This document shows positions 31,327-32,749 of a stretch of 64,000 nucleotides of DNA, one piece after another (position 1 is the stretch's first letter; the number at the start of each line of letters is the position of its first letter). Location: the NCBI GenBank assembly GCA_044345375.1, contig JBIJBF010000005.1:19932-83931 (forward strand), written 5' to 3'. Both the position numbers and the translations under genes were made by a program. Under the pieces are notes generated by a model, which saw nothing but the letters and a program-made list of their open reading frames with translations, was not told where the DNA came from and did not search any database. The stretch is from Alphaproteobacteria bacterium. GTDB lineage: Bacteria > Pseudomonadota > Alphaproteobacteria > CAISOG01.

Positions 31327-32628
31327 ATGCACAACATCAACCAGATCCGTGCTAATCCCGAACTTTACGACAGGCAGTGGCAACGGCGGGGTTTAGAACC
31401 CCAAACCGCTGCGTTGTTGGCGCTGGATGAGCAGCGTCGGCAGGTGATCGCGGCGACTGAGAGCCTGCAGGCAACCCGCAACCGGCTTTCCGCCGACATT
31501 GGTCAAATTAAGGCGGGGGGTCAAAGCAAGGCGGGTGGCGCTGATGTGGAGGCCTTGATGGCTGAGGTGGCGGCGGTGAAGGAGGCGTTGGCGGGCAAGG
31601 AGCAGGAGGTTAGGGAGGCTGAATCAGCCTTAACCGGCGCGTTGGAAGTGCTGCCCAACCTGCCTGCGGCTGAGGTGCCGGCAGGGGCGGATGAGGAAGA
31701 TAATGTTGAGATTCGCCGTTGGGGGCAACCCGCGGCCTATGATTTCACGCCGCAAACCCATGAGGTGCTGGCGACCAAGTTTGGCGTGTCAGGAGACATG
31801 GATTTTGAGGCGGGGGTCGCCCTGTCTGGCAGCCGCTTTACGGTGTTAAAGGGCGGCGTGGCGCGTTTGCATCGTGCGCTGGCGCAATTCATGCTGAATT
31901 TGCACACCGAGGCGTTTGGCTATACCGAGGTGGATGTGCCGCTGCTGGTCAAAAGCCCGACCCTGTACGGCACCGGCCAATTGCCCAAATTCGCTGAGGA
32001 TATGTTTCAAACCGCGGACGATCGCTGGCTGATCCCAACGGCTGAGGCACCGCTGACCACGCTGGTGATGGACAAAATTCTGCAGGAGGCCGAACTGCCG
32101 CTGCGCTTTACCGCCGGCAGTTATTGCTTTCGCTCAGAAATTGGCGCGGCGGGGCGCGACACCACCGGCATGATTCGCCAGCACCAGTTTTTCAAGGTGG
32201 AGTTGGTCAGCGTGACGCGCCCGGAGGACAGTGAGGCGGAGCATGAACGGATGACCGCGTGCGCTGAGGAGGTGTTGAAACGGTTGGAATTGCCCTATCG
32301 CGTCATGCTGCTGTGCGCGGGCGATATGGGCTTTTCGGCGCAGAAAACCTATGATCTTGAGGTATGGTTGCCCGGCCAAGGCCGCTACCGCGAGATTTCC
32401 AGCTGTTCCAACTGCGGCGATTTTCAGGCACGGCGGATGCGGGCACGCTATCGCCCCACCACCACCGACAAGGCCAAGCCAGCCTTGGTGCACACGCTGA
32501 ACGGATCAGGCCTGGCGGTTGGTCGCGCCCTGATTGCGGTGTTGGAAAATTACCAACAGGCGGACGGCAGCGTGCGGATCCCTGAGGTGTTGGTGCCCTA
32601 TATGGGTGGGCTGCAGGTGCTGCGCTAG
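31327..32628 (+). CDS. serS: Seryl-tRNA synthetase
   Basis: N-terminal coiled-coil arm and a class-II core (GYTEVDVPLLV, FRSEIGAAGRDT, GSGLAVGRALIAVLENYQ). The stop TAG lies inside the terminal repeat of family-B copy 2. Confidence 0.9.
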   Translation: MHNINQIRANPELYDRQWQRRGLEPQTAALLALDEQRRQVIAATESLQATRNRLSADIGQIKAGGQSKAGGADVEALMAEVAAVKEALAGKEQEVREAESALTGALEVLPNLPAAEVPAGADEEDNVEIRRWGQPAAYDFTPQTHEVLATKFGVSGDMDFEAGVALSGSRFTVLKGGVARLHRALAQFMLNLHTEAFGYTEVDVPLLVKSPTLYGTGQLPKFAEDMFQTADDRWLIPTAEAPLTTLVMDKILQEAELPLRFTAGSYCFRSEIGAAGRDTTGMIRQHQFFKVELVSVTRPEDSEAEHERMTACAEEVLKRLELPYRVMLLCAGDMGFSAQKTYDLEVWLPGQGRYREISSCSNCGDFQARRMRARYRPTTTDKAKPALVHTLNGSGLAVGRALIAVLENYQQADGSVRIPEVLVPYMGGLQVLR

Positions 32629-32749
32629 AGCATTTTCCATTTAGCCCTACACGTCGTCAGGCTACGGACTCACCGTGCTCACGTATGTAGTATACGCTCC
32701 GCGCGCTTCACCTTGCCTTCCTAGTGTAGAACTAAAGCGAAAACGCTCT
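32625..32749. repeat. Family-B MITE-like repeat, copy 2
   Basis: CTAGAGCATTTTCCATTTAGCCCTACACGTCGTCAG...AAAGCGAAAACGCTCTA. Nearly identical to copy 1. Confidence 0.8.

Follow-up and report, generated by a model that had tools for sequence, protein, structure and literature searches.

How can a repeated sequence come to provide the stop codons of genes while leaving their proteins as they were? The question is raised by a stretch of 64,000 nucleotides (referred to as the window in the following, meaning the whole stretch that was analysed) from an alphaproteobacterial genome assembly (GCA_044345375.1, contig JBIJBF010000005.1, positions 19,932 to 83,931 of the forward strand), in which a palindromic repeat of about 120 bp, here called family B, coincides with the ends of two genes, serS and the NifU/NfuA-like gene nfu. 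An earlier note, made from the sequence alone, had likened this repeat to the MITEs, which are miniature transposable elements with inverted repeats. This identity is now supported by a duplication of the target dinucleotide TA, which becomes visible against an empty site, by many copies in many genomes, and by terminal repeats that are common to family B and insertion sequences of the IS630 family. We consider it very probable that family B is a non-autonomous transposon of the IS630/Tc1-mariner type, which has inserted at the target YTAR (Y, pyrimidine; R, purine), including the stop codons of genes.

Three copies of an element of about 125 bp had been placed at 5562-5688, 32625-32749 and 40423-40550, and all of them were borne out, in one orientation throughout. 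The 23-nt head of the element, CTAGAGCATTTTCCATTTAGCCC, has three matches in the window at no more than one mismatch, compared with none expected from 100 shuffles. When the copies are aligned together with their flanks, the boundaries fall at TA/GAGCAT...ACGCTC/TA, which gives an element of 121-122 bp. Copy 1 (121 bp) spans 5565-5685, with TA at 5563-5564 and 5686-5687 and CTAG as its target; it is intergenic, lying between the 3' end of an open reading frame (ORF) on the minus strand (5706-6581) and fliQ (5214-5498, minus strand), and gives no stop codon. Copy 2 (121 bp) spans 32628-32748, runs from its GAGCA end to its GAGCG end on the plus strand and has inserted at the TA of the stop native to serS, a TAA. 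Copy 3 (122 bp) spans 40426-40547, with TA at 40424-40425 and 40548-40549, and has inserted at the TA of the stop native to nfu, a TAG. Identity is 98% between copies 1 and 2 and about 87-90% between copy 3 and either of them. Family B is without an ORF, and its length falls in the range of bacterial MITEs (about 100-400 bp). Inverted repeats are indeed present at its ends, but their length is 17-19 nt (GAGCATTTTCCATTTAG / CTAAAGCGAAAACGCTC) and not the imperfect 11 bp described before; in copy 2, the GAGCA arm GAGCATTTTCCATTTAG occupies 32628-32644 on the plus strand, and the GAGCG arm, which reads GAGCGTTTTCGCTTTAG on the minus strand, occupies 32732-32748. These terminal repeats are almost invariant in 21 diverse copies of the family. 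The entire element folds into one long imperfect hairpin.

Evidence for an insertion comes from serS (31327-32628, plus strand), which encodes a protein of 433 aa with the Pfam domains Seryl_tRNA_N and tRNA-synt_2b and whose TAG stop (32626-32628) extends across the junction between target and element. By collecting SerS homologues and then fetching their contigs, we found an empty site in a strain whose SerS is 92% identical (L053; L numbers refer to the loci and contigs compared here). Its serS ends in ...CTG CGC TAA, followed by AATGCGGG, and contains one TA only, inside the native TAA stop. Side by side, L053 reads ...CTGCGC TAA AATGCGGGAATGG and the window ...CTGCGC TA(GAGCAT...ACGCTC TA)A AATGCGGGAATGG, and the sequence after the serS stop in L053, AATGCGGGAATGGAGAGTCGCC, is the one that follows the element in the window, including a repeat of a second family, family A. 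Furthermore, the spacer between serS and comEC is 263 nt long in the window, as against 140 nt in L053; since the difference of 123 equals the 121-bp element plus 2 bp, the TA is a target duplication. Its left copy (32626-32627) forms the present stop TAG with G32628, whereas its right copy (32749-32750) reads TAA with A32751, which is the original serS stop as in L053. The native stop of serS was TAA, and the insertion turned it into TAG at the same codon, with only the third base altered.

The same site is filled in another contig, L054, with TA on both sides of the element, although its SerS protein does not differ from that of L053. The two serS genes differ at 6 of 1305 nt, which leaves them 99.5% identical, and one of these differences changes the stop from TAA to TAG at its third base, so the serS insertion is polymorphic among near-identical strains. 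Several short-read contigs (L050-L052, L061, L062 and L065) stop 26 nt into the element, just past the stop codon; the family-B repeat breaks assemblies at these gene ends.

The empty site also bears on a different origin, in which family B would be a palindrome akin to repetitive extragenic palindromes (REP) or bacterial interspersed mosaic elements (BIME), spread by a tyrosine transposase of the REP-associated (RAYT) type, or a SPRITE-like terminator repeat, in which a GC-rich stem precedes a T-run, with the TA flanks belonging to the repeat itself. Family B has something of this appearance, as a palindrome of about 120 nt that lies between genes and clusters with the equally palindromic family A. 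The empty site, however, holds a single TA, hence the second one is a duplication, whereas REP/BIME are short GC-rich palindromes that do not duplicate their target; in addition, the stem is not followed by a T-run, the length of the hairpin is 121 bp, and a DDE-type insertion sequence, described further below, has matching terminal repeats. We therefore give this origin almost no credence.

At nfu (39872-40426, plus strand), which encodes 184 aa with Nfu_N and NifU domains, the TAG stop (40424-40426) is composed in the same way: TA is the target, and G is the first base of the family-B element. The element is present in all 10 contigs that encode the identical Nfu protein, and no empty site was found in the same species among them. 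The comparison was made instead with L066 and L067, the nearest relatives without the element, at 76-78% DNA and about 79% protein identity. The nearest metagenome-assembled genome, ME2017 bin46, is 78% identical in DNA across 1.5 kb. Counted from the conserved motif YYVPEVEEVRA, the Nfu proteins of L066 (...AAC CAA TAG) and L067 (...AAT TAT TAA) stop where that of the window does, with no residue lost or added. The element entered a native TAG, and the stop stayed TAG. As the nfu-linked element is also found in the sample with the empty serS site, the nfu insertion is the older of the two. In one contig (L064, 1038-1300), the sequence beyond the nfu-linked element is wholly unlike the window (GCTCTAAGGGAGACCC), either because the DNA was rearranged at the repeat or because the assembly is chimeric.

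These comparisons change how the two gene ends are to be understood. The stop codons of serS and nfu had been thought to lie inside the element; the element does complete both of them physically, but the TA is target sequence and only the G is its own. The accompanying idea that the insertions had likely replaced the native C-terminal codon or stop is not supported for either gene, given the single changed base in the serS stop and the unchanged ends of SerS in L053 and of Nfu in L066 and L067. The earlier note had further reasoned that orthologues ending at exactly the same residue, followed by unrelated sequence, would speak against its account if no further copies existed. Orthologues do end at the same residue, which is just what a TA-duplicating insertion into a stop codon predicts, but the downstream sequence is identical to that of the empty site, and further copies are plentiful.

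We gathered these copies by scanning species-representative genomes with the 19-nt right end of family B, which gave 47 loci. Two of them, L017 (Acidobacteriaceae) and L025 (Coriobacteriaceae), are chance matches of the 19-mer inside ordinary genes. The other loci represent copies, complete or incomplete, from uncultured Alphaproteobacteria, among them metagenome-assembled genomes (MAGs) labelled Rickettsiales and Holosporaceae; one MAG of the gammaproteobacterial Competibacteraceae also carries family B, and a Verrucomicrobia MAG has a related element of 225 nt. Together, the window and the 47 genome loci provide 44 full copies, on which the flank and ORF counts in the following are based. 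Across these copies, the outer 17-19 nt are nearly invariant; the inner stem varies between genomes, yet stays complementary. Nearly all of them are flanked by TA on both sides. The base 5' of the left TA is C or T in 39/44 copies and the base 3' of the right TA is G or A in 39/44, also where copies lie far from ORFs, and the target is accordingly YTAR. Outside cellular genomes, whole-element blastn (E <=10) against a plasmid collection gave chance fragments only, and a scan of viral contigs with the terminal-repeat pattern gave one match, by chance, inside a gene.

One MAG, AS-MICRO-OLR.108, carries more than 20 near-identical copies of a 101-nt short form of the element. Its derivatives include a composite whose apical loop has taken up a nested insert of about 61 nt, a double hairpin, and which has itself multiplied, as well as one form with two inserts and one deletion form; length forms of this type measure 162 nt (L001, L006, L007, L030 and L041), 221 nt (L018) and 77 nt (L010). 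Copied derived forms with a nested insert are a signature of replication as a unit. Elsewhere, solo 17-nt terminal repeats are joined to gene ends with the junction ATTGG/CTAAAG (L005, 1776-1794; L125, 678-696; L015, 2748-2766), and in L005 and L125 an ORF that looks like an aspartokinase ends in ...GAT AAG ATT GGC TAA within the repeat remnant.

Which transposase could have moved these elements is indicated by their ends. A scan of metagenomes with a degenerate terminal-repeat pattern gave at least 120 loci, and among the matches listed, L101 and L099 have two inverted terminal-repeat matches about 1.03 kb apart. In L101 (282-1306), these delimit a TA-bounded insertion sequence, TA/GAGCGTTTTCGATTTAGTTTGTCCCG...CGGGACAAACTAAATCGAAAATGCTC/TA, with 26-nt inverted repeats starting GAGCGTTTTCGATTTAG and GAGCATTTTCGATTTAG and with a helix-turn-helix (HTH) orfA and a DDE orfB, between which there is a run of eight A (A8). 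For orfB, the score is 124 bits with the NCBIfam model NF033545, 'IS630 family transposase', whose cut-off is 100, and 107 bits with Pfam DDE_3. The GAGCA arm of the MITE matches the insertion-sequence end GAGCATTTTCGATTTAG at 16/17 positions, and the GAGCG arm matches the left end of L101, GAGCGTTTTCGATTTAG, also at 16/17. Again among the matches listed, homologues of the L101 transposase (45-75% identity) stand beside the terminal repeat in 44 of 120 metagenome loci, and the base before the TA at the ends of related insertion sequences is a pyrimidine in 101 of 103 cases, so that YTAR is a property of this transposase clade, which agrees with the known preference of IS630 for a TA in CTAG and with the duplication of TA by ISY100 (PMC2170065). 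In diverged insertion sequences, the outer 17 nt are constant and positions 18-26 vary between lineages. The outer arms of the MITE thus owe their conservation across phyla to being the ends that this clade of insertion sequences conserves, and the covariation of its inner stem, discussed below, follows at least partly from the fact that both transposon ends must match the transposase.

Similar traces might be expected from a transposase of the IS5 family. IS1301 is classed in this family, and the ends of IS427/IS1301-type elements often begin with GAG in the ISfinder tables. Like family B, with its GAGC ends and YTAR targets, such elements duplicate TA at YTAG-like sites, the target consensus of IS1301 being AYTAG (PMC2193550). 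Against a MITE moved by such an enzyme, all full-length elements that have the terminal repeats in question (L101, L099 and about 40 more listed) encode an IS630-family protein with HTH and DDE_3 parts, which makes the involvement of IS5 very improbable.

The same 17-nt ends are found on other non-autonomous families of 133-306 nt (L100, L113, L103, L148, L129, L071, L105, L097 and L023) and on a many-copy group starting GAGCATTTTCGATTTAGTTGATTACAG (L086, L091, L108, L115 and others). Given these further families in soil, peat and other metagenomes, the IS630 clade has given rise to several MITE families.

The presence of family B at stop codons can be explained by two features of its sequence and target. 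The element starts with G on each strand, so both of its junctions read TAG inward, and YTAR contains the stop triplet TAR whichever strand is read, on the bottom strand by way of YTA. When the TA that is hit belongs to a TAA or TAG stop, a stop consequently reappears at the same codon, whichever side the gene comes from. In line with this, ORFs of at least 80 codons end at the left TAG in 15/44 copies and, on the other strand, at the right TAG in 13/44, compared with 0-3 in two control frames; for ORFs of at least 200 codons, the numbers are 11/44 on either side and 0 in the control frames. Long ORFs end on both sides in 6/44 copies, where the ORFs converge and the element gives both stops. 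By eye, the convergent ORFs at L019 and L039 look like real genes with natural ends (NadE-like ...RRYPLTNHF, YcbK-like ...GKVRHWG), whereas the right-hand ORFs of L045 (116 codons) and L046 (136 codons) are less convincing as genes.

We propose that an IS630-family transposase acting on the same 17-nt ends (GAGCRTTTYCSMTTTAG) would excise the element and paste it into a TA with a strong preference for 5'-YTAR-3', whereby the target TA would be duplicated. With the terminal G on both strands, each junction would become TA+G, i.e. TAG read inward, and an insertion into a gene's own TAA or TAG stop would rebuild the stop at the same codon and leave the protein untouched. Such silent sites would survive selection, and copies would accumulate at stop codons, with serS changing from TAA to TAG and nfu keeping its TAG. 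For the host, this would mean that the 3' untranslated region gains a stable hairpin about 120 nt long. In the host of the window, mobilisation is likely to have occurred in trans, through such a transposase.

The excess at stop codons was also assessed in an insertion-density test, in which the elements were removed in silico and genes were called roughly. Stop-codon YTAR sites carry 18 insertions per 146 sites and other intergenic YTAR sites 21 per 820, a 5.4-fold higher density (p = 2e-6), to be read with the caution that the gene calls behind this ratio are crude, the loci were chosen for holding a copy, and some copies are orthologous (L042, L044). Within genes, insertions per available YTAR are far lower. 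Purifying selection is probably the most economical reading, by which insertions on the promoter side or in coding sequence would be lost and those in stop codons would be silent. At L024 (2704-2826), the right flank is TAC and not TAR, and the left TAG ends an ORF of 196 codons; here, unlike at serS and nfu, the insertion may have created the TAG, in a possible true truncation.

The crudeness of this test is one of several points that weigh against family B as a purely selfish IS630-type transposon with selection as the filter. The stop-codon excess could be real targeting instead of selection. No transposase of this family was found by tblastn with the L101 orfA and orfB in the window and L001-L047, at about 8 kb per locus. 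The inner stem covaries, with nine pairs changed on both sides and 0/500 shuffles reaching the covariation score, and G.U pairs are almost confined to the strand that begins with GAGCG, at 72 G.U cells against about three A.C cells; a purely selfish DNA element does not require either of these. As to a resident parent insertion sequence, no terminal-repeat pairs 400-3500 bp apart were present in the window or in L001-L068.

The structural data raise the question of whether family B could primarily be a structured RNA, i.e. a small RNA gene or a 3'-untranslated-region stabiliser or insulator, which is selected by the host and whose mobility is secondary. Its folds are very stable and differ between the strands: a single copy reaches -58 kcal/mol (z of about -7) on the GAGCG-first strand and -41 on the other, and RNAalifold gives -34.2 and -14.9 kcal/mol for the two strands. 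On the GAGCG-first strand, 98.3% of the cells in 28 pairs are standard pairs, whereas slid controls are 36-48% paired. Added to the compensatory pairs and the one-strand G.U bias, half of the copies lie exactly at gene 3' ends, six of them between convergent ORFs. In alignment A3, moreover, several of the column pairs 7/124, 11/120, 21/111, 22/110 and 37/94 toggle between Watson-Crick and G.U but not A.C.

On the other hand, the orientation of the element relative to the gene that ends at it is random: genes end at the weak-fold side in 15 cases and at the strong-fold side in 13, which argues against selection for one orientation in mRNAs. Rfam gave no match on the element, either at the gathering threshold over the whole window or at E <=10 on 32560-32900, and the element contains no promoter-like site and no U-tract or T-run terminator, the hairpin not being followed by a T-run on either strand. 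In its conserved outer 17 nt, family B has the ends of IS630-family insertion sequences, and the G/A difference at position 5 also distinguishes one end of the insertion sequence in L101 from the other; this difference between the parent's ends explains the one-strand G.U bias only in part. The inner stem, in turn, corresponds to the variable inner part of the insertion-sequence terminal repeats, which must match for transposase binding. Finally, TA duplication and presence/absence polymorphism are a transposon's features. A host-selected RNA as the primary identity of family B thus appears improbable, albeit less so than the two other origins considered above.

Between these views, one may imagine that the IS630-type transposon has adapted to stop codons as a safe harbour: landing on the TA of TAA or TAG, even on a TA shared by convergent genes, alters neither protein, and the hairpin would perhaps be kept for a role in RNA, such as protecting 3' ends or insulating convergent genes from each other. 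In that case, the excess at stop codons would stem from targeting or positive retention and not from purifying selection alone. We regard this as a conceivable but rather unlikely extension.

Family A, the second palindromic repeat in the window, is about 105 nt long, with arms GAACCACCCCGTCAGGCTTCGCCTGCCACCCCTCC... and ...GGAGGGGTGCCCGAAGGGCGGGGTGGTT, and occurs at 6663-6820, 15122-15270, 32778-32880, 40854-40998 and 47068-47110. As the earlier note had observed, it lies downstream of both stop-codon copies of family B, 30 bp after the serS element (32778-32880) and about 300 bp after the nfu element (40854-40998). The view that the two families form composite scars has to be given up, though, since L053, which has no family B at serS, already carries family A next to this gene; this indicates independent insertions into the same short spacers. 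Part of the family-A locus after nfu (40884-40945) is absent from L056 and L063. An ORF of the TsaB/TsaD family 3' of nfu (about 40590-40908) has only about 100 aa, and its last codons, LNLPLSFPSCAGVPEGRGGSCNK before the stop, enter the family-A repeat; in relatives, this ORF is also short, with 74-120 aa ending in ...LNLPLQLQTA.

Among known systems, IS630 of Shigella and ISY100 of Synechocystis share with family B the insertion at TA with TA duplication, which is general for IS630-family elements and described for ISY100, and their transposases have HTH and DDE parts (PMC2170065); according to a passage in that paper and its references 29 and 30, IS630 prefers a TA within CTAG. Family B differs from both in lacking an ORF, in its wider target YTAR, and in ends that are specific to a clade of insertion sequences of about 1.03 kb with two ORFs and an A8 run. 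Its closest analogue is RUP of Streptococcus pneumoniae, together with IS630-Spn1 (PMC2229807): RUP is a hairpin MITE of about 107 bp with terminal repeats like those of the IS630 family, which inserts at TA and is believed to depend on mobilisation in trans (PMC2229807, PMC3049150). However, its sequence is unrelated, its host belongs to another phylum, and it is said to prefer insertion sequences and not stop codons as targets; furthermore, the partner insertion sequence of family B was found only in metagenomes and not in the same genomes.

Repeats at gene ends have also been described. BOX of S. pneumoniae encodes the stop codon of 36 genes without clear protein truncation (PMC3049150), and QMITE1 and QMITE2 of Coxiella burnetii overlap gene 3' ends by 1-50 bp (PMC5896051), but no regeneration of a stop by TA duplication was described for these repeats; in family B, it takes place at exactly the same codon, on either strand and through a terminal G. 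Correia/NEMIS of Neisseria and ERIC of enterobacteria likewise are hairpin MITEs with flanking TA, of 100-160 bp, which are transcribed together with their neighbours, and NEMIS hairpins are substrates of RNase III (PMC2229807); neither has sequence similarity to family B. A literal sequence search of a library of papers found none that prints the family-B repeats, and stop codons are not mentioned in a review of prokaryotic MITEs from 2024. Family B is a new MITE family, of a kind of element that is already known, and not a new kind of system.

For the understanding of such elements, family B offers a mechanistic account of repeats that seem to supply stop codons: an element that starts with G and duplicates TA makes stops neutral landing sites. 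For annotation, this means that gene ends at these elements are genuine and not truncations, and the polymorphic serS insertion can be used for strain typing in uncultured freshwater Alphaproteobacteria. Finally, a MITE family of several bacterial lineages is now tied to a defined clade of IS630 insertion sequences.

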